Assembly: GCA_050944475.1 (NCBI GenBank)
Contig: JBMNRD010000003.1
Coordinates: forward strand, 135,316-167,315
Source: Lachnospiraceae bacterium
GTDB taxonomy: Bacteria > Bacillota > Clostridia > Lachnospirales > Lachnospiraceae
Length of the DNA stretch: 32,000 bases
Direction of reading: 5' to 3'
Shown: piece by piece, positions 101-21,243 of the stretch
Layout of the letters: each line of letters begins with the position of its first letter
Numbering within the stretch: the first letter of the stretch is position 1
The notes under the pieces: model-generated
Databases searched by the model: none
Told to the model about the DNA's origin: nothing
What the model saw: the letters and a program-made list of their open reading frames with translations, nothing else
Program-made: the position numbers and the translations under genes

Positions 101-213
101 ACAAATCTCCCTTGTTCCGATGTATTTATCTTTATTTTCGTTTATATTTTAACAAGTGTTTCGCCTTAAATACTTGGATTTTTGTCCAATATATTTAAGA
201 AGCATTCCTTTCT

Positions 214-242
214 TTGACATAATAGTTTTTTTTATGTATAAT
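214..242 (+). promoter_or_regulatory. SigA/sigma-70-type promoter of the PucR-family regulator gene
   Basis: TTGACA (214-219), 17-nt spacer, TATAAT (237-242): consensus hexamers at consensus spacing, about 55 nt upstream of the ATG at 300. It lies inside the GTG-initiated ORF-track model 156..1883, which favours the shorter gene model. Confidence 0.5.
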
Positions 243-299
243 TTACAAAAACTTGGCTGTATCATCAATGCTTGTTGTTCTAATGTTTGGAGTATGTTT

Positions 300-1883
300 A
301 TGCTTTGGGATTTAGTCAAAAAATATTTGGACAATTGTTCAATCAAAATAATAAACCAGTCCGGAAATAAGGCTGATTTTCACGGTTGTCAGTCTTTTAA
401 TACACATATCCCGCTCAACGATCCTAATATAATCTACTGGGGTTTCAGCTCGAATCTGAGTTCTGAGATTATACAAAATAATAAACCTCGAGCTCTTTTG
501 ATATGTCAAGATTCTCCGGCATTTGATTTTTCTATTTTAAAAAACGTGGACTACGTTGCCTCAACCTCTGTCAATAAAAAATTTGAAGAATGTGTTGAAG
601 CACTTGCTAAAGACATGGAACTGTGTAAGAAATATGAACTAGGTAATCGTATTCTGGTAGACCTGCTGACTTCAAATGCCCCCATAAACGATATGGCAAA
701 CCTTATTGCCGAAACCTACGGACATTTCATTGCTTTTGTCGACACCTCTATAAAACTTATCGGATTCAGCACAACTTTTCCCATGCCTGGAAACATGTTT
801 CTGGAAAAACATCATGATGAACATTACATCCCATCCAATACAATAAATCGTTTAATTTCCTCGGGAAACCTTTCAAAAATACTTGATACAGTAGAGCCCA
901 TTCCGATAGAAGATTTTCCGGGTGATTTATATTCATATGTGTTTCCCATTATAATTGGTAATTTTATGCGCGCAGGCTTTTTGGTCTATTTTGTTGAAAA
1001 AAATTTTGTGCTTAATCCTGTTGAGGCTTACCATCTTAAAAAAGTCACAAAACTCTTGAGTCTTGAGTTTCAAAAAAGCCGCCTTGCCCACTTCAGCGAG
1101 CCTACTATTGTAAATAATATCATGTATGATTTCATCAACGGCATCCGACCCGTAAAACATCTTTATGAGGAACAGTTTGCCAGTTTTTCATATGATTTGA
1201 GGAAATTCAAGAATATAGGCGTCATTCCGTTAGCTCTGACGGTTAGCCAAAATATAGGTGCCTACGTTCTGGCAGATATGATCAAAAAAACCTTTTCAAA
1301 CAGTATATATACCATTTTTGATGATTATATAGTGTTTCTAACAAGCCGAGATACCCCCTCCAACATAAGGTCTATACCCGAATATCAGGACTGGAATACT
1401 TCCCTTAACCTTCTTGGCATTCCCGTTGGATTTTCAGAAACATTTGAAAAGTCATCAGTCGCAAGATTAGCCTTTACCCATGCCAAAACGGCCTTAAGGA
1501 TAGGTACAAGACTGTTTCCTTCACATCGTTTCTATATTTATCCGGACATGAAAATCTATGACATAGTAAATACACTGGCGCAATCTACAAATATAAGACA
1601 GTTCGTATTTCTCCCGATTTATAATATAATCAATTATGATACAGAAAACAATTCCGACTACCTTAAAACGCTGAATATGTATTTTAAATGTCACCGTTCA
1701 GTAAAAAACACCTGTGAGAAACTTTATATTCAGCGAAGCACTTTCTATTACAGGCTTGATAAAATCAAGGAACTCCTTGACGTAAATATAGATTCTCCCG
1801 ACATAGTGCATCATATATGGTTTTCATTTGCAATTCTGGAGTATCTTGGTGAAATGGAAAGCCTTTTATTCGAACCGTATTAG
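300..1883 (+). CDS. PucR/CdaR-family transcriptional regulator
   Basis: It has a C-terminal PucR-type HTH: DYLKTLNMYFKCHRSVKNTCEKLYIQRSTFYYRLDKIKELLDVNIDSPD. The long N-terminal sensor-like region is typical of the family. The start is placed at ATG 300 because GGAG at 289-292 gives 7-nt spacing; ATG 294 is the alternative. The GTG at 156 is rejected because the consensus promoter lies downstream of it. Confidence 0.8.
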   Translation: MLWDLVKKYLDNCSIKIINQSGNKADFHGCQSFNTHIPLNDPNIIYWGFSSNLSSEIIQNNKPRALLICQDSPAFDFSILKNVDYVASTSVNKKFEECVEALAKDMELCKKYELGNRILVDLLTSNAPINDMANLIAETYGHFIAFVDTSIKLIGFSTTFPMPGNMFLEKHHDEHYIPSNTINRLISSGNLSKILDTVEPIPIEDFPGDLYSYVFPIIIGNFMRAGFLVYFVEKNFVLNPVEAYHLKKVTKLLSLEFQKSRLAHFSEPTIVNNIMYDFINGIRPVKHLYEEQFASFSYDLRKFKNIGVIPLALTVSQNIGAYVLADMIKKTFSNSIYTIFDDYIVFLTSRDTPSNIRSIPEYQDWNTSLNLLGIPVGFSETFEKSSVARLAFTHAKTALRIGTRLFPSHRFYIYPDMKIYDIVNTLAQSTNIRQFVFLPIYNIINYDTENNSDYLKTLNMYFKCHRSVKNTCEKLYIQRSTFYYRLDKIKELLDVNIDSPDIVHHIWFSFAILEYLGEMESLLFEPY

Positions 1884-2026
1884 ATTTGACTTGGTTTTCG
1901 TTATTTCCACTTCCAAAGAAATTTGTTTGCCAACATAAAAACTGTTTCCGTTCTTTGGTTAAAGAGTAGCTTAAAATTCTAATTCACTTACCCCCATCAT
2001 GATTCGCTCAGATATTGGCCTGAAAT

Positions 2027-2062
2027 AAGGGAATATTCGCCTCTCGGCTTGAATATTCCCTT
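2027..2062. other. Strong stem-loop in a non-coding gap (12-bp perfect stem, extendable)
   Basis: AAGGGAATATTC (2027-2038) pairs with GAATATTCCCTT (2051-2062). Inside the 12-nt loop, GCC/GGC can pair around a TCTC tetraloop. There is no clean U-tract on either strand (ATTT on the minus strand), so terminator function is uncertain. Confidence 0.3.
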
Positions 2063-2186
2063 AAAAATAGCCATACAATGAGAAAATATAATTATATTTA
2101 TCCAACCCGCTATAAAAGAAAAAACGGATTTATACTCGCACGACCGTAATCTGTGGATGAGTGTAGTATAACATATGTCTTTTCAT

Positions 2187-2381
2187 TTAAACAGAGGCTG
2201 TGCGAGGCAGCCTCTTAATGTTTGCACTTTTCCCTTTCATCAACGACACCTCTTTCATGCCCTCTCTGGAAATGGTAGATGGATCCTTCTGCAGATGGGC
2301 GGCAATCTTCTTGAAAGAGAGGTCTTCCTTGAGGAGTTTCTGCAGAGTCAGACGTTCTTCATAAGTAAAAAATTTGAACAT
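2187..2381 (-). CDS. Small helix-turn-helix protein resembling the N-terminal HTH of IS30-family transposases. It is an orphan or remnant; no DDE domain follows.
   Basis: MFKFFTYEERLTLQKLLKEDLSFKKIAAHLQKDPSTISRE... matches the IS30 N-terminal pattern (L/F-T-x-EER-x-x-I-x-x-LL, then IA-x-x-L-x-x-x-x-STISREI). The start is placed at ATG 2381, which has GGAGG 5 nt upstream. The ORF-track start at 2531 adds an implausible hydrophobic leader. No transposase-like frame is found downstream of the stop. Confidence 0.5.
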   Translation of the reverse strand: MFKFFTYEERLTLQKLLKEDLSFKKIAAHLQKDPSTISREGMKEVSLMKGKSANIKRLPRTASV

Positions 2382-2586
2382 GATATCCTCCATTTCTGCC
2401 GCCAACATGAAACAGGATATCGTATCCAGTAAGCACCAGGCAATGGGCATAACAAAAGAGACCGGTATAAAACCTGTCTCCTTGTAAAACGGAATGCAAC
2501 CTCCCTGTTGGTATTTAATTATCAGCAACAATTACAATTACTTCACATGAAAGCAAGAGGGATTGCACCTCGTTTTACAGGTGAGG

Positions 2587-3918
2587 CTATTTGTCAAATC
2601 TGCCGTTTTTTGATAACCATATATCTACATAATCATACAAGGTCTTCTTTGTATCCCCAAACTGACCTGTAAACTTCTCAGCTTCTAAATTTGCATCAAA
2701 GCAATGGGTCGCTCCTTCAATAAAAGCAATCGCCTTGTCTTCACTTGTAGATCTGTCATAGAGCACTTCAGATGCAAGATATTCATATCCGCCGGTCATT
2801 CCAACAAATAATGAAGGACATTTCACGTGCGGAACATTACTCGTTGTGCAGTTATATGTCTCATCCCAGGCAATACCTGTTACCTCATCTTCCTTCATAG
2901 CATAATTAGCCAACGCTCTTACACTGTTATGAGAAAGATAATTCTTTACAGTACTTATTATGGCAGATGACATTACCTGGGCTTTGCCATTTGCCAGTCT
3001 TGGAAGTCTTACACAATTAATAATTTCATTTGTAATCGAACCATCTGCATGAATCAAATCGTGTGCCCTCTTGGTTCTTGCAAATATTGTTATATCCTGA
3101 GGGAATATTTTATTGCATCTTGAAAACTGAGCGGCTGCTGGAATAATGAATGGCTCATCATCAGCATAAAAGCCCTTTCCCTGTTCAATAATAGTTAATC
3201 TATCTAATGCCTTTTGAATAATTGCATTATTTCTTTCAGCCTGAGCCACAAAAAATTTATCTAAAAAAGCCTGACTGTAATTTGCACCTTCAAGAAAATA
3301 TCCGTTAGCAGGATTAAATATATCCAACTCCGGATCCAGTTTCTGACCACTATTCTCATCAATAATTGCGGGATCTATACTAAACAATCCCATAGCTGCT
3401 ATTCCCCAGTTGGAATCAAGCGCCATAAATCCATCTGCAGGCCTCATTTCCTGTGTAATAGAGCATTTGATTAGCATATCATTGCCCTTCACAGAATCAA
3501 GACCTTCTTCTGCCATTCGCTGGTAGGCACTCATTAATGTTCCGCCACCACTATGTCCCATTAAAACTACTTTAGTTATCCCTGCAACACAATACATAAA
3601 GTCTACCGCTCGTTTTACATCGTAAACCTTAGCATCAAGAGATGAATTAACTTCAGTAACGGCGCTGCCAAGCGCTCTGTATCCGCGCTTGGCCATCTCG
3701 CCGCCCATATCATTTAATGTATAATCTGCACTTGGATGCATAAGGATAATTCCAATATGACTTTTATCACCTAGAGCCACCGGTTCATATAACATACCAT
3801 GCTGAGGACGCGGTCCATCTCCAAGCGAAACAAAAATGCTTCTTATCGGAAGATCTCCCTCAAGATATCCGCCTTCTATATTACTGTATTTCTTTTCTTT
3901 TGCATCGTAAATATACAT
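2587..3918 (-). CDS. Alpha/beta-fold hydrolase, about 440 aa, paralogue 1
   Basis: It has a GHSGG nucleophile elbow (VVLMGHSGGGTLMSAYQ) and a C-terminal catalytic-His context (FIEGATHCFD). It aligns collinearly with the ORF at 18294..19547 (ADG..D.N.G, PELD...P.NGY, GKG.F.DDEPF, F.RT......L.H.DG.ITNEI). ATG 3918 is preferred because AGGAG lies 4 nt upstream; ATG 3930 is the ORF-track start. Confidence 0.8.
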   Translation of the reverse strand: MYIYDAKEKKYSNIEGGYLEGDLPIRSIFVSLGDGPRPQHGMLYEPVALGDKSHIGIILMHPSADYTLNDMGGEMAKRGYRALGSAVTEVNSSLDAKVYDVKRAVDFMYCVAGITKVVLMGHSGGGTLMSAYQRMAEEGLDSVKGNDMLIKCSITQEMRPADGFMALDSNWGIAAMGLFSIDPAIIDENSGQKLDPELDIFNPANGYFLEGANYSQAFLDKFFVAQAERNNAIIQKALDRLTIIEQGKGFYADDEPFIIPAAAQFSRCNKIFPQDITIFARTKRAHDLIHADGSITNEIINCVRLPRLANGKAQVMSSAIISTVKNYLSHNSVRALANYAMKEDEVTGIAWDETYNCTTSNVPHVKCPSLFVGMTGGYEYLASEVLYDRSTSEDKAIAFIEGATHCFDANLEAEKFTGQFGDTKKTLYDYVDIWLSKNGRFDK

Positions 3919-3951
3919 AATGCTCCTCATTCAAGTACACTGATTAAAACA

Positions 3952-4818
3952 TTATTTTACACCTTTTGCAAAAATCTCTTCCTTAGTATAAAGTCTTTCG
4001 ATAAGGCCCTGTTCAAGACAGTACTTCATACCAATTTCAACTGCCGGCCATACACCTTCAATGTTATATACATACGGGAATGGTTCAGGCCTTGAATCAA
4101 CAGGATAAGCCTGATCAACAGCCTTTGTAAGCATTTCATATACTGCAGCAACTGTTTTCTCATCCATATCATCCTTTACAACTACCATATGGTTGATAGG
4201 AACACACTTATTCTTCTCATACCATGTTGCAATAGCATTTGGAAGATTAGGAACAAGCTGCGCAAGTCCTTCAGGTACTCCCTGCTTAGTTCCCTGAATT
4301 ACAGCTGCAAGTTCGTCATCACGAACCATCTGCTCAAGATCAGCGCCCGGTACAACTTCTACATTCTCAGGAAGAACATATGTTGCTACATGAGGCGGCT
4401 CAGTTGTAACCCAAGTTACATCCTTACTTGCTACGCCAAACTGTTCTGAAAGGACTCCACGGACCCATGCACCTGTTGTCTGTGTATAAGCTCTTACACC
4501 AATCTTCTTTCCCTTAACATCAGCAGGCGCTGAAATATCAGAACCCGGACGATACCAACAGCTCCCATGATGAAACTCGCCAACCATAACGATTGGAAGG
4601 AGCTTTACTTTAGCCTTAGCATCGAATGCCTGAAGCAATGTTACGAGAGGCATCTCACATACATCAAATGGGTAACCATCAAGCATATCCTCTGCCGCCT
4701 TTGGGACTCCTTTATATTCTGTAAACTCAAGCTCTACATCAGGACTTGTGATAATGCCTTCTTTAAGAGGTCTTGTATGAGCATTTGTTGCAAGAACAAT
4801 TTTAACTTTCTTTGCCAT
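3952..4818 (-). CDS. PhtD-like protein (4,5-dihydroxyphthalate decarboxylase family). It has a type-2 periplasmic-binding-protein fold and no signal peptide.
   Basis: MAKKVKIVLATNAHTRPLKEGII...FDVCEMPLVTLL...DVKGKKIGVRAYTQTTGAWVRGVLSEQFGV...VTW follows the PhtD-family pattern (YDRTRAL.DG ... FDV.E.SLS ... DLKGKRVGVPEYQ.TA.VW.RG.L.DEYGV). The start is placed at ATG 4818, with a GGGGGA RBS 8 nt upstream. The ORF-track start at 4881 would overlap the upstream gene. Confidence 0.6.
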   Translation of the reverse strand: MAKKVKIVLATNAHTRPLKEGIITSPDVELEFTEYKGVPKAAEDMLDGYPFDVCEMPLVTLLQAFDAKAKVKLLPIVMVGEFHHGSCWYRPGSDISAPADVKGKKIGVRAYTQTTGAWVRGVLSEQFGVASKDVTWVTTEPPHVATYVLPENVEVVPGADLEQMVRDDELAAVIQGTKQGVPEGLAQLVPNLPNAIATWYEKNKCVPINHMVVVKDDMDEKTVAAVYEMLTKAVDQAYPVDSRPEPFPYVYNIEGVWPAVEIGMKYCLEQGLIERLYTKEEIFAKGVK

Positions 4819-4837
4819 TTTCGATTTCCCCCACCAA

Positions 4838-5503
4838 TTACTTAAGCATGTTCTCGTAGTTAACAGCCTTGTCAACATCACCTAGTTTTGCGCCTTCTTT
4901 AAGTTTCGCTATCATAAGCTGTTCTTTTTCTTCAATTTCTTCAGCTTTATCAATAACCTCAATAATACGTTCCTGTGGGATAACTACTACACCACTTCTG
5001 TCAGCAACTACAATATCTCCGAATCTGCAACATGCACCTGCAAGATTAATTGGTTCGTTAATTGCTGCTTCCATGTAACGACCGCGTGCTGTAAGAACAG
5101 TTCTTCCCTTGCAGTATACAGGAAAGTCCAAAGCATAGATTTCATCACAGTCACGAACAACTCCATCTGAAACCCATCCTGCCATTCCGCTGAGAACTGC
5201 TGCTGTAGCTGTTACGCCACCGCATGTATTCATCTCAGGAGCAGTTGTACCTTCACATACGATAACGCTTCCTTTTTCAGCATTTTGGATAGTTGCCATT
5301 CCGCCATGCTTTTCCTTTGGAAGATAATCTGTAGGAATAAATCTCTGTGTTACTGCCGGTCCGACAATCTTTCTTGTGTTATCAAACAATGGAGTAATAC
5401 CTCTGCATACATTTGAAAAACCAAGTGCATCCATAGCATCAGAAATTACTGTTGTTCCGAGTTTATCCAAACGTTCTTTAAGTTCTGGTGTTAATTTACT
5501 CAT
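4838..5503 (-). CDS. RraA-fold protein (class II aldolase/oxaloacetate decarboxylase family, HMG/CHA-aldolase-like), divergent paralogue 1
   Basis: The sequence shows TTVISDAMDALG, then a Gly-rich segment CGGVTATAAVLSGMAGWVSDGVVRD (the family D-G-x-x-R-D motif), then GDIVVADRSGVVVIP. GGAG lies 7 nt upstream of the ATG. Confidence 0.75.
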   Translation of the reverse strand: MSKLTPELKERLDKLGTTVISDAMDALGFSNVCRGITPLFDNTRKIVGPAVTQRFIPTDYLPKEKHGGMATIQNAEKGSVIVCEGTTAPEMNTCGGVTATAAVLSGMAGWVSDGVVRDCDEIYALDFPVYCKGRTVLTARGRYMEAAINEPINLAGACCRFGDIVVADRSGVVVIPQERIIEVIDKAEEIEEKEQLMIAKLKEGAKLGDVDKAVNYENMLK

Positions 5504-5523
5504 TCTTTATCTCCTTTTTTATA

Positions 5524-5553
5524 GTGAACCCGACGCAGAAGTGCCGGGTTCAC
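5524..5553. other. Intergenic 9-bp GC-rich stem-loop between the PIG-L-like and RraA-like genes
   Basis: GTGAACCCG (5524-5532) pairs with CGGGTTCAC (5545-5553) across a 12-nt loop. The T-run (TTTTTTT, 5561-5567) follows it on the PLUS strand, antisense to the operon. On the operon strand it is followed by TATAAAAAAGGAG. Confidence 0.4.
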
Positions 5554-5565
5554 GTAACTGTTTTT

Positions 5566-6306
5566 TTATTTTCTTGAAGGAAGTTCTTCAACTGCTAATG
5601 GGAAGAACATCTTGAATGATTCAGCGTACTCCATCTCTTTCATGCCTAGAACTGTACGGGCTCCCTGCCAGCCTCTGTGTGTGCTGAGACGTGTATGAAT
5701 AAATGGACCTTCCTTCTGAGCCTTGATACACTTCATTGCTTCAACTTTCTTATCAAAAGTTGTTGTGATATTGATATAGATGTCAGGGCGATATCCACTG
5801 CGTTCTGGTTCTGAAGCCTCAAATCCATACACAGGAACATTCTTAATTGGGTTAAGTCCGTTAGAAGGGACACCTGCCTGTGTAGCCATCTTAAGAGCCT
5901 GCATAACAATTGTATGAGCAACTGCATGGTCAAGGTTTGTGCTGTCCCCTTCATCATGAGTAATGATAAGTGTAGGCTTAACTTCTCTGATTTTTTCATT
6001 AAGTTTTTGAAGAATTTCAGGTGTTATCTGAAGCATACAATCATCAAAATCCCACATTTCAAAATCTGTAACGCCAAGAACTGCTGCCGCATTATGAGAT
6101 TCTTCCGAACGAGCAGCTCTAACACCTTCTGCCGTCTGTCCTTCAACTTTCCAAAGAGTTGTTGACTCGCCACGTACGCCATAAGTAAGGCAAACAATTA
6201 CTACCTTTGCACCTGCTTCAAGGTACTTGGCGATAGTACCACTACTTCTCCATACCCAGTCAGCTGAGTGTGCACTGATTACCAATAATATATCATCTTT
6301 CATCAT
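5566..6306 (-). CDS. PIG-L/LmbE-fold metalloenzyme, possibly GalB-type (4-oxalomesaconate hydratase-like)
   Basis: The N-terminal signature LLVISAHSADWVWRSSG replaces the canonical AHPDD. The spaced H-x-x-D pair and a later NLDHAVAH are retained. The size (246 aa) and the order of conserved blocks fit the family. GGAGG lies 9 nt upstream of the ATG. Confidence 0.7.
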   Translation of the reverse strand: MMKDDILLVISAHSADWVWRSSGTIAKYLEAGAKVVIVCLTYGVRGESTTLWKVEGQTAEGVRAARSEESHNAAAVLGVTDFEMWDFDDCMLQITPEILQKLNEKIREVKPTLIITHDEGDSTNLDHAVAHTIVMQALKMATQAGVPSNGLNPIKNVPVYGFEASEPERSGYRPDIYINITTTFDKKVEAMKCIKAQKEGPFIHTRLSTHRGWQGARTVLGMKEMEYAESFKMFFPLAVEELPSRK

Positions 6307-6328
6307 CTCTATTTACCTCCAAATCTAA

Positions 6329-7216
6329 TTAAGACAATAACTGTTTAGGGTTATCTACAATTGTTTTTCTAACTTCCGTCTCTGTGTATCCCAGACCTAA
6401 CATCCACTCAGCCCACTCGCGAAGAGCAACATCCGGATAATCAAATTTCTCCTGACCTCTATCAGTACTCATAATAAGATAATCAGGACTGATTGCTCTT
6501 ACATGCTTCTCCATTAGATCCCATGCAGTCTTACCTGATGTTGCAGAATTGTAACAATGCTCAATGTAAGCACCATACTTAAGAACTTCAAGCTGGTCTT
6601 CAATATCATAATAACAGAGTGTTGAATCTACATGTGTGCAGATAATTCTGTTTACACCTCTTTCAGCTGCTGCCTTTACTACTGCTTTTCCTTCTCTGCA
6701 TGAAATATGACCTGTACAAAGTACCATATCATATTTAGCGATAACATCGATGACATCGTAAACTGCATCAACTAACTTTCCATTATCATCAAGAATCTGT
6801 ACCGGTTTAAGATCATATCCATCTGCTTTAAGGGAGAGGAGAACATCCAACCAGAAAGGTTTACGGTCATCTACAAATACTTCTTCTGTTTTGTGATGTG
6901 CCGCAACCGTATCAACCGTTGGGAACCAAACAACTTTTCCCCCATCTCTTGCGCAAGCATCGACAGCATAAGGATTAAGTCCCCCAACAGAATTATTTAG
7001 AGAAATGCTTCCATAAGTTTTAACTTCAGGAACTCTTGCATTGGCAACTTTTGCCCATCCAGATGTTTCGAAGTAATGACTTTTGATAACATACCCACCC
7101 ATACCTGCGTCTCTTGCTCTCTCTGCCATCTCCAAGAAATCAACCTTTCTTGGCATAATGTCTGGACCGACATGAATATGCATATCATAAGCGCCGGAAA
7201 TAATTGAGTCCACCAT
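6329..7216 (-). CDS. Amidohydrolase-superfamily (TIM-barrel metal-dependent hydrolase) protein
   Basis: Superfamily ligand pattern: HxH near the N-terminus (YDMHIHVGPD), later His residues (VLCTGHIS, IICTHVDS) and a late Asp (IMSTDRGQ). The start is placed at ATG 7216, with GGAGG 8 nt upstream. The ORF-track start at 7231 is a TTG. Confidence 0.7.
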   Translation of the reverse strand: MVDSIISGAYDMHIHVGPDIMPRKVDFLEMAERARDAGMGGYVIKSHYFETSGWAKVANARVPEVKTYGSISLNNSVGGLNPYAVDACARDGGKVVWFPTVDTVAAHHKTEEVFVDDRKPFWLDVLLSLKADGYDLKPVQILDDNGKLVDAVYDVIDVIAKYDMVLCTGHISCREGKAVVKAAAERGVNRIICTHVDSTLCYYDIEDQLEVLKYGAYIEHCYNSATSGKTAWDLMEKHVRAISPDYLIMSTDRGQEKFDYPDVALREWAEWMLGLGYTETEVRKTIVDNPKQLLS

Positions 7217-7437
7217 ATTGATAGCCTCCAAAATTTATTTTTTCATCTACTATGGTACCATTCTAAATTCAATAAGTTAAATTGAGAAAATTGCATTTAT
7301 GTTTAATAAAAACTATTGATTTAGTTAATTTGATTTTATTTATGTAATGATAAAAAACTGATTGTGCCGACGCTTCCAATTTATGATATTTTTATAGTTA
7401 GAAAGTATTAATTATTAATTAATTGAGATGTAATCAT

Positions 7438-8595
7438 ATGTCAAATATTGTTGGAATCCCTCAAGCTGCCATGAATGCTCTGACAGATCTGGTTGATAAC
7501 TGTGCTGAAGTTAAACCTGGTATGGACTGCCTGATTATTGCCCAGAAAGATGGCTTATATGAAGGTGATAACTGTGTGGACGCTGAAGCTGTTGAATGGC
7601 TATCATCTGTGGTTCAATCAAGAAGCGCAAATTGCACAATCCTTTGGTTTGATAACCCTGTAAAGGTACATGAATGGAAATATCCTCCTGTTGTAAAAGG
7701 TGCTGTTGGCGCTGCTGATCTTGTATTCAATTTTTCTTTTGATCTTGTTACTACAGAAATTCCAGAGCTTAGAAAAGGCGTTGAGGAAACAAAAACCTGG
7801 CTTATTCCAATGTTCGCTGTTACAGCCCCTATGTTAATGACCGAATGGGCTCAAACTCCATATGAGCTCCTTGTTGCAATCAGACACATTTCTTCTAAAC
7901 CATTCATGAATAATATGGCTCCGTTTGTTCTTACAGACCCAAACGGAACTCATATCGAGGGAAATGTCCTTGACCCCGTTGCCCGCCCTGGGATTCCGGG
8001 TCTTCCATATGATTCATACAGAAAACAGGTTCGTCACACAGCATTTTGGCCGGAATGGCTTCATCCTCCTGTAAACTGTACAAATGTTAATGGTGCCTTC
8101 AATTTTGACCGAATGCTTGCTTTTTGGTCACGATATATCGGCATCAAGCCTGAATGGAAAGATCTTGTAACTGTAGAAGTGGAAAACAGCCGTATTAGAG
8201 ATATTAAAGGTGGAGAAGAAGCCAAAAAGATCTTGGTCTTCCTTAAGGAAATGGAAACAAAGGTAGGCGACGCTATCTGGAAGTTTGATACATTCCACTT
8301 TGGAGTTCATCCAAATGCAACTATTGAAGAATATCAGTGTCCAAATGACCTTAGAAGGCGTTTTGTAAATCATGCGCATACTTCCAATGTTCATGCTCAC
8401 CTTGGCTCTGCACCTGCAAATGAAAACTACCCATTTTATCCACATATCACAGCCGATATTCGTCAAGCAACATTAACTGTAGGTAATACTTTGGTTTACG
8501 ATGATGGCTATCTGTGCTGCCTTGATGATCCTTCTCTTAAGGAAATAATGGCAAAATATCCGGGCCTCCCTGGAATTCCACCAAGAAGCAAATAA
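7438..8595 (+). CDS. M29 (aminopeptidase T)/NicX-like superfamily protein, paralogue 1
   Basis: Block order resembles aminopeptidase T and 2,5-dihydroxypyridine dioxygenase NicX: ...VEVENSRIRDIKGGEEA..., FHFGVHPNA, NVHAHLGSAP, PHITADI. It is about 55-60% identical by eye to the ORF at 14362..15513. The ATG at 7438 aligns with the paralogue's N-terminus (MSNIVGIPQAAMNALTDLVDNC versus MAPVCGIPEAAMVSLTDLVDNC). Confidence 0.55.
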   Translation: MSNIVGIPQAAMNALTDLVDNCAEVKPGMDCLIIAQKDGLYEGDNCVDAEAVEWLSSVVQSRSANCTILWFDNPVKVHEWKYPPVVKGAVGAADLVFNFSFDLVTTEIPELRKGVEETKTWLIPMFAVTAPMLMTEWAQTPYELLVAIRHISSKPFMNNMAPFVLTDPNGTHIEGNVLDPVARPGIPGLPYDSYRKQVRHTAFWPEWLHPPVNCTNVNGAFNFDRMLAFWSRYIGIKPEWKDLVTVEVENSRIRDIKGGEEAKKILVFLKEMETKVGDAIWKFDTFHFGVHPNATIEEYQCPNDLRRRFVNHAHTSNVHAHLGSAPANENYPFYPHITADIRQATLTVGNTLVYDDGYLCCLDDPSLKEIMAKYPGLPGIPPRSK

Positions 8596-8693: not shown

Positions 8694-9647
8694 TTAATTT
8701 AGCTCTTTAACTCTACAACATGCCACAAAATGATTTGGTGCAATCTCTTCGAGATGCTGTGGTTCATGACATTTTTCTGTAGTATATGGACATCTTTGAG
8801 CAAATCTGCAACCTGGTTTCGGATTAACAGGGGATGTAATCTCACCCTTAAGAATAATATGCTCAGGCTCCTTTGTAATATCCAATGAAGGAATAGCCGA
8901 AAGAAGAGCTTTTGTATATGGGTGTGCCGGATTCTTGAAAAGCTCCTTAGACGGACTTGTTTCGACCAGCTGTCCAAGATACATAACAGCAATGTTATGC
9001 GAAATATGTCTTACAACTGAAAGATCATGTGTAATGAACATATATGTAAGACCATGCTCTCTCTGAAGATCCTGAAGAAGGTTAAGTACCTGAGCCTGAA
9101 TTGATACATCCAGTGCAGATACCGGTTCATCACAAACAATGAATTTAGGGTCAGGAGCAAGAGCTCTTGCAATACCAACTCGCTGCCTTCTACCACCATC
9201 AAGCTCATGAGGATACGCTTTACGAAGTCTCTCATCAATACCTACCATATTCATAAGCGTTTCTGTTCGCTCAGCAATGAATTTTGCCGGAAGACCCGCT
9301 GTACGAAGTGGCTCCTGAATAGACTGCTCAACTGTAAGTCTTGGATTAAGTGATGAATAAGGATCCTGGAAGATGATGCGCATTTCATTATGAAAATTCT
9401 TCAGTTTCTTGCCCTTTAACTTTGTAACATCTCTGCCATCAAACAAAATCTGTCCTGCAGTACTGTCTTCAAGATGAACCATTACTCTTCCGAGAGTTGT
9501 TTTTCCGCATCCAGACTCACCTACTACACCAAGTGTTGTTCCCTGTTCAATCTTAAAGTTAACACCGTCAACAGCATGAAGGAGGCCTCTAGGTGTTGGA
9601 AAAAACTTTTTAAGATTATTAACTTCAATAAACGAACTCATAATCAT
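8694..9647 (-). CDS. Oligopeptide/dipeptide-type ABC transporter ATP-binding protein (OppF/DppF-like)
   Basis: Walker A GESGCGKTT, signature/Walker B region ELDGGRRQRVGIARALAPDPKFIVCDEPVSALD, and a Cys-rich C-terminal Opp domain (GCRFAQRCPY...C). There is an ATGA overlap with the upstream ATPase gene. ATG 9641 is an alternative start, with GGAGG 7 nt upstream. Confidence 0.9.
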   Translation of the reverse strand: MIMSSFIEVNNLKKFFPTPRGLLHAVDGVNFKIEQGTTLGVVGESGCGKTTLGRVMVHLEDSTAGQILFDGRDVTKLKGKKLKNFHNEMRIIFQDPYSSLNPRLTVEQSIQEPLRTAGLPAKFIAERTETLMNMVGIDERLRKAYPHELDGGRRQRVGIARALAPDPKFIVCDEPVSALDVSIQAQVLNLLQDLQREHGLTYMFITHDLSVVRHISHNIAVMYLGQLVETSPSKELFKNPAHPYTKALLSAIPSLDITKEPEHIILKGEITSPVNPKPGCRFAQRCPYTTEKCHEPQHLEEIAPNHFVACCRVKELN

Positions 9648-10642
9648 TCCTCCTTCTTATAATTAATGCATCGACAGAAATGTCCAGGTCTGACCTCTGT
9701 TAATGGAATCACTTCACCCGATTTACAAGCTTCTATGGCAAATGGACAACGAGGTGAGAAATAACATCCCACTGGCAGGTTTGTAGGATCCGGAGGAAGG
9801 CCGTCTATCGGACTAAGTCTGTCAACATCAGAGTTGATATGAGGAATCGAGCCAAATAATCCTTTTGTATATGGATGTGCAGTATGAAGGAAGATATCCT
9901 CCTTTGCTCCCATCTCAACAATCCGTCCCGCATAAATAACCGCAACGTCATCGCAAGCCTCAGCCACAACACCGAAATCATGTGTAATCAGAATCATTGA
10001 AGTATTCAGTTCATCGCGAAGCTTCTTGATTAACTGAAGCACCTGAAGCTGGATTGTTACATCCAGGGCCGTTGTAGGCTCATCAGCAAGGATTAGTTCA
10101 GGGCGACATGCAAGAGCCATAGCAATAACTACTCGCTGCTTCATTCCACCTGAAAACTGATGTGGATATTCAGAGATGCGATCTCCCGGAATGTCTACCA
10201 TCTCTAGCATTTCAGCGGCACGCTTATAAGATTCAGATCTGCTTACTCCATAATGAAGCTTAATTGCTTCCGCAATCTGCTTACCAACTGTCATTACCGG
10301 ATTAAGCGCAGTCATCGGATCCTGGAAAATCATTGCAATCTTGTTTCCGCGAATATGACGCATTTCTTTTTCTGATACTTTCAGAAGATCCTCACCCTCC
10401 AAAAGAACATTTCCGTTTCTTATATGAGCGGCATAATCCGGAAGAATTCTAAGGATAGTTTTCGCAATTGTTGTTTTACCTGCACCTGTTTCTCCAACCA
10501 AAGCAAGAGCACGACCTTTCTTTAATTGGAATGAAACTCCATTTACTGCATGAACAATCTGTCCATCTGAAGTATATTCAACAACAAGATCGTCTACTTT
10601 AAAGAAAGGTGCATCATTTTTCTCAATAGTTGACATAATCAT
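9644..10642 (-). CDS. Oligopeptide/dipeptide-type ABC transporter ATP-binding protein (OppD/DppD-like)
   Basis: Walker [42 protein letters not shown], and a C-terminal [10 protein letters not shown]...C motif. Confidence 0.9.
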
Positions 10643-10651
10643 TCACCTCTC

Positions 10652-11536
10652 TTACTTCTTTAACTTAGGATCAAGGGCATCTCTCAGACCATCACCGATA
10701 AGGTTCAGTGAAAGAACTGTAAGTACGATCGCAATACCTGGGAATATCAAAAGGTATGGGTAATCACGGATGTAATCTCTTCCTGACGAAAGCATTGCGC
10801 CCCATTCAGGGTTAGGAGGCTGAATACCTACACCGATAAAGCTTAAGCTTGATGCAATCAGTATTGTATTGGCGCAACCAAGTGTTGATTGCACAATAAT
10901 AGGAGAAATTGCATTAGGAAGCAGATGCTTTCTAATAGTTCTAAAAGCACCTGTATTATCTATTACCGCTGCATCAAGATACTCTGACTTGCGAACCTGG
11001 AGGATAGAACCTCTAAGGAGTCGAGCCATTGGAGCAATGTTACCGATACCAAGCGCAATAGCCATCTCGACCATTCCTGTACCGAGTACTGTCGTAAGAG
11101 CAATCGACAGAAGCATACCCGGAATAGCCTGGATTATGTCAAGAAATCTCATGATAACATTATCGATTTTTCCACCAAGGTATCCTGCAATAGATCCTAA
11201 AATAATACCACCCACAGCTGCAAGTCCTGTTGCAAAAAGGCCGATAAATAATGAGAATCTACCACCGTACATAACACGGCTTAAAATGTCTCTACCAAGT
11301 TCATCACAACCAAAAGGATGCTTAAGACTTGGAGCCTCAAACAAATTATCCATATCTATAGCCTTATAGCTATATGGTGACAGAATTGGAGCAAAAATGG
11401 CTGCTAATACAAGAACTATCATTACGATCATTCCTACTGTTGCACCTTTGTTCTGAAGAAATCTCCTGAATATTGCTTTTCCACTGCTCTCTTTTTTTAT
11501 TACGGTTATATTTGGATTTTCATTCTTTTTCTTCAT
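10652..11536 (-). CDS. ABC transporter permease (OppC/DppC-like)
   Basis: It has multiple TM segments and the BPD-transporter EAA-like loop (SEYLDAAVIDNTGAFRTIRKHLLPN). There is a 4-nt ATGA overlap with the upstream permease gene. Confidence 0.9.
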   Translation of the reverse strand: MKKKNENPNITVIKKESSGKAIFRRFLQNKGATVGMIVMIVLVLAAIFAPILSPYSYKAIDMDNLFEAPSLKHPFGCDELGRDILSRVMYGGRFSLFIGLFATGLAAVGGIILGSIAGYLGGKIDNVIMRFLDIIQAIPGMLLSIALTTVLGTGMVEMAIALGIGNIAPMARLLRGSILQVRKSEYLDAAVIDNTGAFRTIRKHLLPNAISPIIVQSTLGCANTILIASSLSFIGVGIQPPNPEWGAMLSSGRDYIRDYPYLLIFPGIAIVLTVLSLNLIGDGLRDALDPKLKK

Positions 11537-12483
11537 TTGCTCTTCACCGCCCTTTTCGCGTACTGAGCCTTGATACGTGGATCAATGACCGCGTAAAGCA
11601 AATCAACCAGCAACATGATTAAACTGAACAAAATAGCAAGGAAAATAACCGACCCCATAACTACAGGATAATCTCTACCAGTTACACCATTAATCATGAA
11701 TCCGCCAATACCAGGAATTGTGAAAATGGTTTCAATAACTACAGTTGCTCCAAGCATCTTTCCGAAGTTTGTACAAGCAATTGTAAGTACAGGAATCAAT
11801 GCATTAGGAAGCGCGTGCCTGAAAATAACCTTACGTTCAGGCAAGCCTTTAGCTCTAGCTGTTGTAATATAATCAGATCGAATTACTTCCAGCATACCGG
11901 AACGGGTTTGTCTTGCCTGAATTGCCAGTGAACTCAGAGAGTTTGCAATACATGGCAGGATGTAATGCTGTATAGAAGTATATCCTACCGACGGCAACCA
12001 GCCTAATTTCAATGAAAATAAAAGAACCAGCAGCATCGCTACCCAAAACACAGGCATTGATACACCGATAAGGGCAAGAATCATTGAAAAGTTATCCCAG
12101 AAACCTCCATGGTGAATAGCAGCATTAACACCTAATGGAATGCCAACACACATGGCAATTATAATACATGCTGCACACATACCCATTGTTCGCGGTAATC
12201 TTGATAACAACTCCATGCCAATACTTCTACCGGTTATATATGAAGTTCCAAAATCAAAATGAAAGAATAAGCGTTTGCAATAGTCCCACAATCTTATAAG
12301 GTAAGGCTGGTCAAGACCCAATTCAATTCTCTTCGCTGCCATTTCCTCCGCGGTTGCGTTCTGTCCCAAAATTGTTGATGTTGGATCACCCGGAACAAAA
12401 TACATAATCGTAAATATCAGAATGGTAACGCCGATAATAATAGGAATCATCAATATTAATCTTTTAAGAATGTATCTCCACAT
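11533..12483 (-). CDS. ABC transporter permease (OppB/DppB-like)
   Basis: N-terminus MWRYILKRLILMIPIIIGVTILIFT is typical of OppB/DppB. EAA loop: SDYITTARAKGLPERKVIFRHALPNA. Confidence 0.9.
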   Translation of the reverse strand: MWRYILKRLILMIPIIIGVTILIFTIMYFVPGDPTSTILGQNATAEEMAAKRIELGLDQPYLIRLWDYCKRLFFHFDFGTSYITGRSIGMELLSRLPRTMGMCAACIIIAMCVGIPLGVNAAIHHGGFWDNFSMILALIGVSMPVFWVAMLLVLLFSLKLGWLPSVGYTSIQHYILPCIANSLSSLAIQARQTRSGMLEVIRSDYITTARAKGLPERKVIFRHALPNALIPVLTIACTNFGKMLGATVVIETIFTIPGIGGFMINGVTGRDYPVVMGSVIFLAILFSLIMLLVDLLYAVIDPRIKAQYAKRAVKSK

Positions 12484-12560
12484 AGATTAATCCTCACAAA
12501 TTTAGAAAAACATTCACTTTTTCTGATATATTATTTCTTATAGACTCGATTAAATATCTT

Positions 12561-12602
12561 TTTAAAAAATAGCAGCGCCATAGGACCCACCTATGGCGCT
12601 GC
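12561..12602 (-). terminator. Rho-independent terminator or attenuator directly after the binding-protein gene, inside the transporter operon
   Basis: A perfect 13-bp stem, GCAGCGCCATAGG (12572-12584) with CCTATGGCGCTGC (12590-12602), has a 5-nt loop. On the minus strand it is followed by TATTTTTTAAA (reverse complement of 12561-12571). It starts 9 nt after the stop codon. Confidence 0.65.
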
Positions 12603-12610
12603 CCGATTAA

Positions 12611-14299
12611 TTACTCTTTAAATGTCAGTGCTCCTGGAAGGATGAACAGCTTAGGTGTGTAAACCATTTCAACAATATTGCTTGTTGTTACATGGAATCC
12701 CTGTTCTGTGTAAAGTCCGTAAACATAACACTGATCTTTAATGCGCTGATGAGCTGCATTGACATTCTCTTTTGTTCTTCCTTCTGCTGTTTCAAGTTTC
12801 TTAAGCATTTCTTCGAGTTCATCATCTTTCATCTGAGCGTAGCTCTTTTCCTTATTGCCTGCTGCAAGGAACTGTGTCCAAAGGTCAGCAAGACTTGTGA
12901 ATGAAGACTGGTCAAGACGAATGTCGTAAGCTTCTTCATCATACTTATGAGCTGCAAATGCTGCTGAGTCATATTCCTCAATTTTAACTTCGATGCCAAC
13001 TGCTCCAAGGTATCCCTGAAGAGCCTGCGCTATAGAAATATTAATATTGTCTGAAGATGAAGCCATAATACGGATCGACTGTGACTTATCAAATCCTGAA
13101 GCCTTAATAAGTTCTTCAGCCTTGCTTGGATCGTACTCATAATAAGCCTCATTAGCCCAATCAGGGTTGCAGTCTGCGAATATGACTGCGCCGAATGTTG
13201 TAGCCTTGATTCCATATCCGCCGTAAGCTTTAATGATACCGTTAGCATCAACTGCATATGCAACAGCCTGACGAAGTTCTACGCTCTGCATTGGGCTCTT
13301 TTCGCCACAGTTGAAGTACAGGTTACATGACCTGCTGTCAATATTTGACCATACATTATAATCCGCATTCCCTTCAAACTTAATAGCTTCCTTTGTTGCC
13401 ATTGCTTCAACAACATCAACATCACCCTTTTCAAGTGAAATACTCTGCTGAGCTGCTTCCTTAATCTTCATGAACTCAATACGATCAACATTCTGTTTAT
13501 GCCAATACCAGCCCGAATTTGTGTCTCTGTCAGCAAGGTCTTTGCCCCAATAATCTTCTACCTTCTCAAGTACAGCAACAGAGCCTGACTCAAATTCAAC
13601 AAACTTGTATGTACCTGTTCCAACTGCTTCTGTAGCCATTCCATCAGGACTCTCTTCATACGCTTCCTTAGTTACACAAAATACCATAGGAACAGAAGAC
13701 GCAAACTGGTAATCACGAGCATTTGCCATTGTAACTTCAAGTGAAAGCTCGCCTGTTTGAACTACATCTTTGATCTGACCCATACCAGAAACATTGTTGG
13801 CCTCTCTACACTGCAGAATAGAGAATACTGCATCTTCAGCTGTAAATGGATAACCCTTCCAGTCATGGATTCCTTCATGAAGAATGATTTCATAAGTTGT
13901 ATCGCTCTTCTTGTTGATTTCTTTAGCAAGAGTCAAGACATACTTACCGGTAACCTTGTCGTAATCGAATAACGTCTGATATATAGAGTTAATTACATAG
14001 TGACGCCCTTTAGAAGAACCTGCCCAAGGCGAAATGTTAGTTGGAACATCACCAACTGCCATCTTAAGAACGTCCTTCTGCACACTCTCCATAACGTAAC
14101 CTGTACCGCCGTGTGAGCCTGATCCTGCGAGGTTGCCCTCTTCAATAAGATCTTCCTGATCTAGTTCGCCAACATTAATTATCTGTGTTGCTTCGTCTTC
14201 AGCCTTAGTAGTAGCCTCCGCTTGGCCATCATTACCGCATGCTGCAAGACTAAACACCATGATTGCTCCTAAAAGGAGCGCAATGATACGTTTTTTCAT
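12611..14299 (-). CDS. ABC transporter substrate-binding lipoprotein, family 5 (OppA/DppA/NikA/opine-binding type)
   Basis: It has a lipoprotein signal peptide with lipobox (MKKRIIALLLGAIMVFSLAAC-GND). The 562-aa length and family-5 architecture fit, and it is positioned first among the transporter genes. AGGAGAG RBS. Confidence 0.9.
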   Translation of the reverse strand: MKKRIIALLLGAIMVFSLAACGNDGQAEATTKAEDEATQIINVGELDQEDLIEEGNLAGSGSHGGTGYVMESVQKDVLKMAVGDVPTNISPWAGSSKGRHYVINSIYQTLFDYDKVTGKYVLTLAKEINKKSDTTYEIILHEGIHDWKGYPFTAEDAVFSILQCREANNVSGMGQIKDVVQTGELSLEVTMANARDYQFASSVPMVFCVTKEAYEESPDGMATEAVGTGTYKFVEFESGSVAVLEKVEDYWGKDLADRDTNSGWYWHKQNVDRIEFMKIKEAAQQSISLEKGDVDVVEAMATKEAIKFEGNADYNVWSNIDSRSCNLYFNCGEKSPMQSVELRQAVAYAVDANGIIKAYGGYGIKATTFGAVIFADCNPDWANEAYYEYDPSKAEELIKASGFDKSQSIRIMASSSDNINISIAQALQGYLGAVGIEVKIEEYDSAAFAAHKYDEEAYDIRLDQSSFTSLADLWTQFLAAGNKEKSYAQMKDDELEEMLKKLETAEGRTKENVNAAHQRIKDQCYVYGLYTEQGFHVTTSNIVEMVYTPKLFILPGALTFKE

Positions 14300-14334
14300 T
14301 TTCTTTCTCTCCTTATCTGATAGATTTTTATTTG

Positions 14335-14351
14335 TAGGTGATCATCACCTA
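14335..14351. promoter_or_regulatory. Perfect 17-bp palindrome between the M29-like paralogue 2 gene and the binding-protein gene; candidate operator or RNA stem
   Basis: TAGGTGAT-C-ATCACCTA has 8-bp arms around a single centre base. It lies 36 nt upstream of the ATG at 14299 and 11 nt downstream of the stop at 14362. Confidence 0.3.
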
Positions 14352-14361
14352 ATGCGCAATT

Positions 14362-15513: not shown

Positions 15514-15536
15514 AAATACCTTCTGCTATTTGTATT

Positions 15537-15558
15537 AAAAGGGCAAATGACGTTGCCC
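15537..15558 (-). terminator. Weak terminator-like hairpin downstream of the membrane-protein gene
   Basis: GGGCAA (15541-15546) pairs with TTGCCC (15553-15558) across a 6-nt loop. It is followed by TTTT on the minus strand (15537-15540). It sits only 24 nt upstream of the start at 15513, so it could instead be a leader element. Confidence 0.3.
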
Positions 15559-15647
15559 AAGTTTCTATTTAAATCTTAACTAACTATGATAAAAAAGTAA
15601 ATTCAATACAATTTATAGGCTCTTTATATAAATCTTTTATATATTTT

Positions 15648-21231: not shown

Positions 21232-21243
21232 TGTACATTCCTC

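Follow-up and report, generated by a model that had tools for sequence, protein, structure and literature searches.

The lower part of the gallate (gal) pathway of Pseudomonas putida KT2440 includes the 4-oxalomesaconate hydratase GalB, of the PIG-L family, and the RraA-fold aldolase GalC, encoded side by side in one operon. LigI, LigJ and LigK of Sphingobium sp. SYK-6 follow the same logic, in which a lactone hydrolase (LigI, an amidohydrolase-superfamily barrel), a hydratase and an aldolase act in turn to give pyruvate and oxaloacetate. Here we describe an operon in which the GalB and GalC families are joined to a hydrolase of the DUF6282 family. It is located on the minus strand, at positions 2587-7216, of a 32,000-nt stretch from a Lachnospiraceae bacterium (contig JBMNRD010000003.1, positions 135,316 to 167,315; the whole stretch analysed is hereafter called the window). 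Judging from protein families and gene neighbourhoods, its first three genes are a conserved, previously uncharacterised catabolic module of anaerobes. We consider it probable, if only slightly so, that the predicted DUF6282, GalB-like and RraA-like proteins are an oxygen-independent hydrolase-hydratase-aldolase module for a lactone or an unsaturated polycarboxylate.

With respect to GalB, the hydratase of the window has in common the SAHSAD(F/W)VWR motif, the metal ligands, the alanine at the general-base position and the equivalent of Glu-48, and, with respect to GalC, the catalytic Arg-Asp pair of the aldolase is kept in the RraA proteins. Unlike the gal pathway, the window is without GalA dioxygenase, GalD tautomerase and GalT/porin, and the host is a strict anaerobe; the hydratase has Ser for His-164 and clade-specific changes at at least four conserved positions, the aldolases are far under the ligK_PcmE equivalog cut-off, and a DUF6282 hydrolase is attached to the module, whereas we know of no DUF6282-type gene in the P. 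putida gal cluster. Compared to SYK-6, the hydrolase is a DUF6282 and not a PF04909 protein and has an apparently full set of metal ligands, whereas LigI is reportedly metal-independent, and the hydratase is of the GalB and not of the LigJ type. What is new relative to the known lower pathways is the hydrolase family, the anaerobic hosts and the lack of a LigAB/GalA enzyme; the family logic is known from GalB/GalC and LigI/LigJ/LigK.

The operon consists of the following five genes, in the order of transcription:

6329-7216, minus strand: gene 1, DUF6282 protein, 295 aa (Pfam PF19799)
5566-6306, minus strand: gene 2, GalB-like PIG-L-fold putative Zn hydratase, 246 aa (Pfam PF02585, PDB 5cgz)
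4838-5503, minus strand: gene 3, RraA-fold protein RraA1, 221 aa (Pfam PF03737)
3952-4818, minus strand: gene 4, PhtD-like protein, 288 aa (PDB 9jp7, Pfam NMT1)
2587-3918, minus strand: gene 5, alpha/beta-fold serine hydrolase with a GHSGG motif, 443 aa (sub-threshold Pfam matches)

These are intact, co-directional open reading frames (ORFs), the starts of which were refined by reading the sequence, with spacers of 22, 62, 19 and 33 nt and a purine-rich, GGAGG-like ribosome-binding site (RBS) 6-10 nt 5′ of every start (TGGAGG, GGAGG, AGGAG, GGGGGA and GAGGAG). The five protein lengths were confirmed by independent gene calls on three contigs with identical protein, and the five genes form one real operon in a Lachnospiraceae genome. 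An earlier note on this DNA had described five minus-strand genes with gaps of about 19-62 nt and RBSs of their own, which agrees with both the sequence and the independent gene calls, and all the motifs that it quoted (DMHIHVGPD, CTGHIS, CTHVD, STDRG, SAHSADWVWR, DHAVAH, DGVVRD and GHSGG) are present in the translations.

Gene 2 matches PF02585 (PIG-L) with E=7.9e-27 and P. putida GalB (PDB 5cgz) over its full length (residues 7-242 versus 4-239) with E=2.2e-42, whereas its deacetylase matches have E values of 1e-7 or worse. It is also far under the cut-offs of the NCBIfam BshB, MshB and Mca models (for BshB1, 72.7 bits versus 182.5). The metal ligands H13, D16 and H127 are kept, Ala15 occupies the position of the deacetylase general base (AHSAD, not AHPDD) and Glu47 is the equivalent of GalB Glu-48. 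In GalB, an alanine is said to replace the deacetylase general base, Glu-48 to position and activate the metal-bound water and His-164 to be the catalytic acid; restoring the Asp reportedly gave no hydrolase activity. Among 76 hydratase homologues the metal ligands are invariant, the Glu is kept in 76/76, and the general-base position holds Ala in 69, Gly in 7 and Asp in 0. A deacetylase role for gene 2 was ruled out by the GalB versus deacetylase scores together with the alanine at the general-base position, so that the protein groups with GalB and not with sugar or thiol-conjugate deacetylases, as the earlier note had supposed.

As for gene 3, RraA1 matches PF03737 with E=2.4e-32; its best NCBIfam model, the PRK08245 subfamily, gives 131.6 bits, under the cut-off of 208, and in the PDB it matches 3k4i (E=2.9e-26) and the 4-hydroxy-4-methyl-2-oxoglutarate/4-carboxy-4-hydroxy-2-oxoadipate (HMG/CHA) aldolase 3noj (E=3e-8). 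Another protein of this fold is encoded farther along the window:

16649-17323, plus strand: RraA2, second RraA-fold protein (NCBIfam PRK06201, PDB 3noj)

RraA2 is closer to HMG/CHA aldolase than RraA1. It matches PF03737 with E=4.3e-47 and PRK06201 with 249 bits, over the cut-off of 231, its best PDB match is 3noj itself (E=6.5e-24), with R118-D119 on Arg123-Asp124, and its counterparts in relatives are in the same operon as the DUF6282 and GalB-like genes. The ligK_PcmE equivalog TIGR02798 (cut-off 304.5) was reached neither by RraA1 (83.5 bits) nor by RraA2 (104.1 bits). In HMG/CHA aldolase, the enolate-stabilising Arg-123 is essential and is followed by the metal ligand Asp-124 (PMC5065237). 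The equivalents of Gly101, Arg123 and Asp124 are kept in RraA1 and in 77/77 partner RraA proteins, most of which also keep Asn71, His75 and Lys147. Precisely, the residues at Gly101/Asp102/Asn71/His75/Lys147 are G,G,Y,E,R in RraA1, G,E,N,N,K in RraA2 and G,D,N,H,K in most partners, in an alignment that did not reach Glu-199. The Arg-Asp pair, on which the earlier note had made the aldolase assignment depend, is present in both paralogues of the window. We consider RraA1 a putative class II pyruvate aldolase or oxaloacetate decarboxylase with a diverged substrate pocket.

For gene 1, PF19799 (DUF6282, E=1.4e-68) is the sole Pfam match; there was no match in NCBIfam, and a search of solved structures with this sequence alone was unhelpful. 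Its AlphaFold2 (AF2) model, with a predicted local distance difference test (pLDDT) value of 93.5, is an amidohydrolase-superfamily barrel. The nearest structures found by Foldseek were phosphotriesterase (PTE)-like lactonases, the phosphotriesterase homology protein (PHP), renal-dipeptidase-like proteins, TatD and dihydroorotase (E~1e-6, template modelling (TM) score ~0.6, 10-17% identity), and Xaa-Pro dipeptidase structures were also among the matches. When the family profile was compared to the PDB, E. coli PHP was found with E=0.016, its beta6 His and beta8 Asp being aligned. PTE-like lactonases and PHP are, in both searches, the nearest neighbours, at a remote similarity, and there was no match of the window protein to Pfam PF02126. 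Invariant in the family are H15, K45, H47, H170, H195, E219 and D252, and H13 is at least 90% conserved. H13xH15, H170, H195 and D252 are at predicted strand ends, in agreement with the (beta/alpha)8 superfamily pattern (HxH following beta1, and His, His and Asp following beta5, beta6 and beta8, respectively). With regard to the carboxylated Lys (or Glu) that bridges the binuclear metal centre in the PTE-like lactonase/PHP branch, the invariant K45 follows beta2 and E219 is in beta7, neither at the canonical beta4 position.

The earlier note had read gene 1 as an amidohydrolase-superfamily TIM barrel akin to LigI and LigJ. The barrel was borne out by the AF2 model and by Foldseek; the kinship was not. 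In fact, a relationship to LigI/LigJ (PF04909, COG3618-type) was ruled out by the Pfam, Foldseek and profile searches: LigI and LigJ were outside the top 50 Foldseek matches, and Amidohydro_2 proteins appeared in the comparison of the profile with the PDB only at E ~0.8-1.3. Since DUF6282 is a separate family of the superfamily, it is a LigI analogue at most. It is plausible, given the modelled barrel, that it is a putative metal-dependent lactonase or hydrolase doing the ring- or ester-opening step. We found no mention of DUF6282 in the literature searched; for this family, the present reading gives a concrete functional hypothesis.

The linkage of the three families was examined by scanning one genome per species with the DUF6282 alignment; we considered the 80 best loci, over which all the locus counts are given. 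A GalB-like gene was found at most 5 kb from DUF6282 in 71/80 loci, an RraA-like gene at most 7 kb from it in 66/80, both in 61/80 and neither in 4/80, the last mostly on short contigs. That the three families are found together is more than chance, and the tight coupling of hydratase and aldolase to DUF6282 and to carboxylate transporters extends to at least 61 genomes at the species level, nearly all of them of anaerobic lineages. A GntR/FCD regulator is present in 57/80 loci and a TAXI-TRAP, TTT or AEC transporter in 60/80. The hosts are nearly all anaerobes (Clostridia, spirochaetes, Dehalococcoidales and Syntrophorhabdales), plus the facultatively anaerobic Enterococcus. Cultured Clostridia among them include Enterocloster, Hungatella, Lacrimispora, Youngiibacter, Lucifera and Maledivibacter; Enterocloster hominis (strain CLA-SR-H021), [Clostridium] asparagiforme (DSM 15981), Hungatella hathewayi, Youngiibacter multivorans and Lucifera butyrica would be suitable for study. 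The adjacent PIG-L and RraA pair that the earlier note had likened to GalB-GalC thus has the expected families and recurs across many genomes. To the question whether such loci are embedded in peptide or glycan utilisation genes, which the same note had raised, the answer is that they mostly have carboxylate transporters (TAXI-TRAP, TTT), with the Opp type used by the nearest subclade; among the observations that it had named as contrary and that can be sought in silico, none was made. We found no literature combining RraA, PIG-L and amidohydrolase, and on oxalomesaconate hydratase in anaerobes only surveys.

The hydratases of the DUF6282-linked loci fall into three clades. Clade A, the majority, keeps His-164, and its usual gene order is GntR, DUF6282, GalB-like, TAXI-TRAP, RraA. 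Clade B is formed by the window and nine other loci, has Ser at position 164, and shows coordinated changes at the equivalents of Tyr86, Tyr198, Tyr199, Trp196 and Gln164. Clade C comprises six loci from metagenome-assembled genomes of anaerobes, with hydratases that share 61-67% identity with P. putida GalB; of these loci, the two annotated with Pfam (L042 and L043) contain only DUF6282, RraA, GntR, GalB and a TctCBA tricarboxylate-type transporter. Over the 76 homologues, position 164 is Ser in all the 10 members of the window clade and His in the other 66, and this is, at the level of the alignment, a diagnostic split defining putative subfamilies.

Within clade B, the locus of Enterocloster hominis (L010) has a NicX-like gene with CitMHS, then a divergent LysR gene, and then DUF6282, GalB-like, RraA1, RraA1b, RraA2 and PhtD-like genes, after which the operon continues with IorA-like and IorB-like genes, butyrate kinase, phosphotransbutyrylase and an MFS transporter. 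By comparison of gene orders, the window is a rearranged version of this layout, without functional Ior and with two hydrolases gained.

The last two genes of the operon are outside the conserved core. Gene 4 encodes a signal-less protein of the periplasmic-binding-protein fold, with no NCBIfam match and a weak match to Pfam NMT1 (E=1.2e-5). Its only match among solved structures is PhtD, of the same signal-less fold family (PDB 9jp7, E=1.6e-9), limited to the N-terminal ~170 residues (26-195 of the long ORF). PhtD is the 4,5-dihydroxyphthalate decarboxylase of a phthalate pathway that feeds protocatechuate 4,5-cleavage; differently from that pathway, no phthalate dioxygenase or dehydrogenase genes are nearby. 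A PhtD-like gene is present in 4/80 loci, and L010 has a 57%-identical orthologue of gene 4 within the same operon. Gene 4 is a putative non-oxidative decarboxylase by this similarity. Gene 5 gave only sub-threshold Hydrolase_4 and DUF1749 matches, and its sequence search of solved structures was unhelpful. Its family is small (731 representatives at E<=1e-3), with His405 invariant and Ser123 at least 90% conserved, and a Pfam scan of 40 relatives returned generic fold matches only. It is confined to this contig and was not found in the other related loci, so that we regard it as a predicted accessory alpha/beta serine hydrolase specific to this genome. The families that the earlier note gave to these two genes agree with a partial match for PhtD and a sub-threshold one for the hydrolase.

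From the gene structure, the family and fold assignments, the residue conservation and the synteny, which were observed directly, we infer a substrate class, an order of the steps and the products, as follows. DUF6282 would hydrolytically open an unsaturated polycarboxylate that is imported as its lactone, lactam or ester. The GalB-type hydratase would then add water to the resulting 2-hydroxy-dienoate or 2-oxo-enoate to give a 4-hydroxy-2-oxo acid, and the RraA-fold class II aldolase would split this into pyruvate and a second oxo acid, the latter being oxaloacetate if the substrate is like 2-pyrone-4,6-dicarboxylate (PDC) or oxalomesaconate. Pyruvate plus oxaloacetate are in this sense the presumed end products. 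Such a module would need no oxygen, cofactor regeneration or CoA, and would therefore suit fermenters. In clades A and C, PDC or oxalomesaconate/4-carboxy-2-hydroxymuconate (CHM) would be the simplest substrate. In clade B, the changes in the hydratase, the additional RraA paralogues, the PhtD-like protein and, in relatives, Ior with phosphotransbutyrylase (Ptb) and butyrate kinase (Buk) suggest that the substrate is another, related one, probably with more carboxyl groups or substituents, and that a second 2-oxo-acid product would be oxidised for ATP. The elaborations of the window subclade would be the PhtD-like decarboxylase, extra RraA paralogues, one or more NicX-fold genes beside the transporter (two in the window) and, here, two alpha/beta hydrolases; in its relatives, the indolepyruvate-type oxidoreductase with phosphotransbutyrylase and butyrate kinase would be added.

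Several observations weigh against this pathway, or against its simplest form. Ser165 of the window hydratase replaces GalB His-164, the proposed catalytic acid, and the clade also differs from GalB at the equivalents of Tyr86, Tyr198, Tyr199 and Gln164. Because His-164 is missing, gene 2 should be filed as a GalB-clade homologue and not as an isofunctional GalB; that its substrate is the same as that of GalB is doubtful from these residues, and the altered active site (His to Ser and the others) suggests that it is probably a carboxylated relative of gallate ring-fission products and not CHM itself. PDC itself as the substrate of the window operon is distinctly unlikely. RraA1 has Gly at the Asp102 equivalent and an altered pocket, DUF6282 is outside the LigI/LigJ family, and no GalD/LigU-type tautomerase was found among the common neighbour families. 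The window has an Opp-type transporter, a type that usually imports peptides, and its locus is in decay, with a pseudogene of indolepyruvate oxidoreductase (IOR) and a transposase fragment. Finally, we know of no established natural source of PDC-like or oxalomesaconate-like compounds in anoxic habitats. If the proposed module is real, it may serve anaerobes to scavenge what others release, be it ring-fission products or pyrone/enoate polycarboxylates, or such intermediates may arise by an anoxic route not yet known; in either case it would be relevant to gut polyphenol metabolism and to carbon turnover in anoxic soils and sediments.

The same three families could also serve the catabolism of sugar-acid lactones, with DUF6282 as a sugar-lactonase, the PIG-L protein as a (de)hydratase giving a 2-keto-3-deoxy acid and the RraA aldolase releasing pyruvate and an aldehyde. 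The GntR/FCD regulators and the TRAP/TTT transporters are typical of sugar-acid loci, lactonases are the structures nearest to DUF6282, in one locus (L026) two MR_MLE genes of the enolase superfamily and one for an aldehyde:ferredoxin oxidoreductase adjoin the module, and a GarL/HpaI-type aldolase is present in another (L007). However, the hydratases are homologous to GalB, reach 67% identity with the P. putida enzyme and carry its special active-site signature, and GalB chemistry hydrates a conjugated enol-acid and is not an alpha,beta-dehydration of a polyol acid. Moreover, sugar dehydrogenases, kinases and isomerases are absent from the common neighbours, and a related locus (L092, 5992-12474) is within what looks like a cluster for the O-demethylation and ring cleavage of aromatics. 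There, a 38%-identical DUF6282 protein occurs with FAH, a VOC-type extradiol dioxygenase, a 468-aa GCV_T protein, an RraA-like protein and a PIG-L protein 47% identical to GalB. As independent support for a role with ring-fission products, the other genes of such a cluster leave one function without a candidate, the hydrolysis of PDC or of an ester, and a lactonase-like DUF6282 fits this gap. On these grounds we judge the sugar-acid explanation unlikely.

With regard to these two loci, L092 looks high-GC (by eye, from protein composition), and in L093 (6114-9379) a DUF6282 protein of ~38% identity is beside MTHFR and the same GCV_T protein, which by eye resembles the LigM O-demethylase. L007 is a clade-B-like metagenome locus (715-5259 and 13873-17177): the module is followed there by RraA, a LeuCD-like hydratase and the GarL/HpaI-type aldolase, and the genes upstream resemble those of 4-hydroxybutyrate/succinate-semialdehyde fermentation (Fe-ADH, HpaB, NifU, AcetylCoA_hydro). 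These genes hint at succinate semialdehyde as a possible product in that locus.

Two further alternatives depend on the genes to the right of the operon, which are:

7438-8595, plus strand: NicX/M29-fold metalloprotein, 385 aa, divergent from the operon (AF2 model, Foldseek)
8694-14299, minus strand: Opp/Dpp-type ABC transporter with two ATPases, two permeases and a family-5 lipoprotein binding protein (Pfam SBP_bac_5 E=2.4e-55; BPD_transp_1, OppC_N, ABC_tran, oligo_HPY)
14362-15513, minus strand: second NicX-fold paralogue of 383 aa, encoded first in the transporter operon (57% identical to the 7438-8595 protein)

The earlier note had seen no dioxygenase. In the ORFs scanned, at 1-23 kb, there is indeed none of the LigB/GalA type, so that the statement holds for LigAB/GalA enzymes; two NicX-fold genes, on the other hand, flank the locus. 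Both flanking proteins share the fold of NicX and of the M29 aminopeptidases (TM 0.59-0.66), and differ from these in their ~14% identity, anaerobic hosts and different neighbours. The 7438-8595 protein has no Pfam match in the library searched (its homologues carry PF26233, 'NicX'); the pLDDT value of its AF2 model is 90.6, and Foldseek gives NicX 7cn3 (E=2.5e-19, TM 0.59/0.66), then the M29 aminopeptidases AmpS and PepS. The pairing of a NicX-like gene with SBP5/Opp is also found in L005/L009, L011, L091, L095, L096 and L099.

We found 80 metagenome loci of this NicX-fold family, and counted the neighbours over 71 of them. A 7-bladed 'Lactonase' beta-propeller is present in 42/71 loci, frequently as the next gene downstream (L090 and L121, for example), Amidohydro_2 in 20, MarR in 15 and TRAP DctP in 11; a Mo enzyme similar to the pyrogallol hydroxytransferase large subunit is beside the family in 17/71 loci and its Fe-S subunit in 9. 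Single contexts include a tannase (L089) and a DAPG-hydrolase with Opp (L091), and only the closest relatives adjoin the DUF6282 module. These neighbourhoods suggest that the family is tied to anaerobic polyhydroxybenzene metabolism and lactone chemistry. With such a context it is unlikely that the family acts in these hosts as a true O2-dependent dioxygenase, and it becomes a candidate for the 'missing' step that precedes the operon: the NicX-fold enzyme would be the best candidate for producing the substrate of the operon, by ring opening or isomerisation, and, in the loci with pyrogallol-transhydroxylase clusters, a candidate for an enzyme that is missing from the anaerobic degradation of polyphenols. 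Among the papers listed in our searches, none mentions NicX together with pyrogallol, transhydroxylase or gallate. The far-reaching combination, in which NicX-fold enzymes and the module would together carry out an O2-independent ring fission of gallate-type or hydroxyphthalate-type acids to pyruvate-family products in strict anaerobes, passing via a lactone and oxalomesaconate-like intermediates, is unlikely as a joint claim; to our knowledge, such intermediates are known so far only from O2-dependent extradiol cleavage.

The NicX-fold proteins might instead be true Fe(II) dioxygenases that use trace O2 on a dihydroxypyridine-type or gallate-type substrate, in which case the operon would be a conventional lower pathway. 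NicX is in fact the top structural match, homologues are assigned to Pfam NicX, the downstream enzymes mirror the gallate pathway, and in a profile alignment H292 falls on the NicX Fe ligand His265. The Fe(II) ligands of NicX are His265/Ser302/His318/Asp320, of which only His265 could be aligned; the family has several further invariant His/Asp residues. The sequence similarity to NicX is marginal (E=0.083), and the spacing of the H-x-D ligands has no obvious counterpart (H341-x3-D345). Against this micro-oxic ring cleavage, which we hold to be quite improbable, are also the hosts, obligate anaerobes (Lachnospiraceae, Enterocloster, Erysipelotrichaceae and digester Clostridiales), and the co-localisation of the family in metagenomes with the pyrogallol-transhydroxylase-like Mo/Fe-S enzymes, typical of strict anaerobes.

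Use of peptides or amide conjugates, with Opp import, the NicX/M29-fold and S33-like hydrolases as aminopeptidases, DUF6282 as a dipeptidase, the PIG-L protein as a deacylase and RraA incidental, would agree with the Opp/Dpp-type transporter between two NicX/M29-fold genes, with M29 aminopeptidases being the second-best matches of the NicX-fold model, with renal-dipeptidase-like and Xaa-Pro dipeptidase structures among those of DUF6282 and with the weak matches of gene 5 family members to Hydrolase_4 ('serine aminopeptidase S33'), but it is very improbable, because the general-base Asp of PIG-L is replaced by Ala (Ala or Gly in 76/76 homologues), the aldolase catalytic residues are strictly conserved, 60/80 loci have carboxylate transporters and Opp is limited to the nearest subclade (window included), the NicX-like gene of Enterocloster (L010) pairs with the carboxylate carrier CitMHS instead, and the Opp binding protein of the window is far under every NCBIfam equivalog cut-off, those of peptide-binding proteins included.

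The remaining features of the window are:

156-1883, plus strand: PucR/CdaR-type regulator, downstream of the operon (Pfam HTH_30 E=1.4e-15)
5524-5553, minus strand: stem-loop within the 62 nt that separate the hydratase and RraA1 genes, without U-tract (RNA folding)
7217-7437, no strand assigned: AT-rich divergent intergenic region between the operon and the NicX-fold gene (sequence reading)
17386-18250, plus strand: pseudogene, frameshifted and truncated, for the alpha subunit of a 2-oxoacid:ferredoxin oxidoreductase of the indolepyruvate type (tblastn with the L010 orthologue)
18294-19547, plus strand: paralogue of gene 5, 417 aa, GNSRG elbow (BLASTP E=3e-63, 31% identity)
19691-20587, plus strand: LysR-type regulator (Pfam HTH_1 and LysR_substrate)
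20698-22497, minus strand: LeuCD/homoaconitase-type Fe-S (de)hydratase, small and large subunits (NCBIfam PRK00402, 470 bits; LeuD/DmdB small subunit, 81.6 bits)

The spacer stem-loop has a folding free energy of -21.1 kcal/mol (z = -4.66), and 0/200 shuffled sequences were equally stable; it is possibly an mRNA processing or stability element, or a partial attenuator. The intergenic region likely holds the promoters of both the operon and the NicX-fold gene, although the sigma-70-like matches on the minus strand at 7288-7260 and 7411-7383 are weak and not above chance expectation. The promoter and terminator scans gave no more hits than in shuffled sequence and were uninformative, the search for a regulator box 5′ of DUF6282 gave only weak common AT-rich stretches, and no riboswitches, other RNA elements or tRNAs were found in the window.

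The IOR pseudogene matches only residues 84-406 of the 608 of the L010 orthologue, in two frames; against TIGR03336 (IOR_alpha), the intact protein of L010 reaches 632 bits. LysR genes 38-45% identical to that of the window are 5′ of DUF6282, in divergent orientation, in L009-L012. LeuCD-type copies are 77-78% identical in L011 and 44-51% identical beside the module in L007/L008, and the pair possibly belongs to the same catabolic island. The GC content is 35-43% up to ~23 kb, in the catabolic region, and 45-53% in the housekeeping genes beyond (24000-32000), with a Mutator-family transposase fragment at the boundary (23214-23714). The GC step and this fragment suggest that the region is a horizontally acquired, partly eroded island.

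On the same contig, past the left edge of the window, BKACE, 3-hydroxyacyl-CoA dehydrogenase, Peptidase_M24, SDR and CitMHS genes follow the PucR regulator (L001, 16207-20741), a set partly like a phloroglucinol cluster but without the cyclase-family cyclohydrolase. We dropped this link because the published cluster employs a 'cyclase'-family cyclohydrolase and not M24 (PMC10470551). Between the second NicX-fold gene and RraA2, a predicted protein of 275 aa (15648-16475, minus strand) is hydrophobic and, by eye, apparently membrane-spanning; it has no match in Pfam or NCBIfam, and the identical contigs L001 and L002 encode it as well. Lastly, a tandem 60-nt repeat (~5 copies, 93% matches) is found at 29453-29801, within the minus-strand ORF 28941-29927, where it encodes the E/R/A-rich EEERIAEEERLAAEEEERRL of a 328-aa protein, and the antisense strand has long spurious ORFs.

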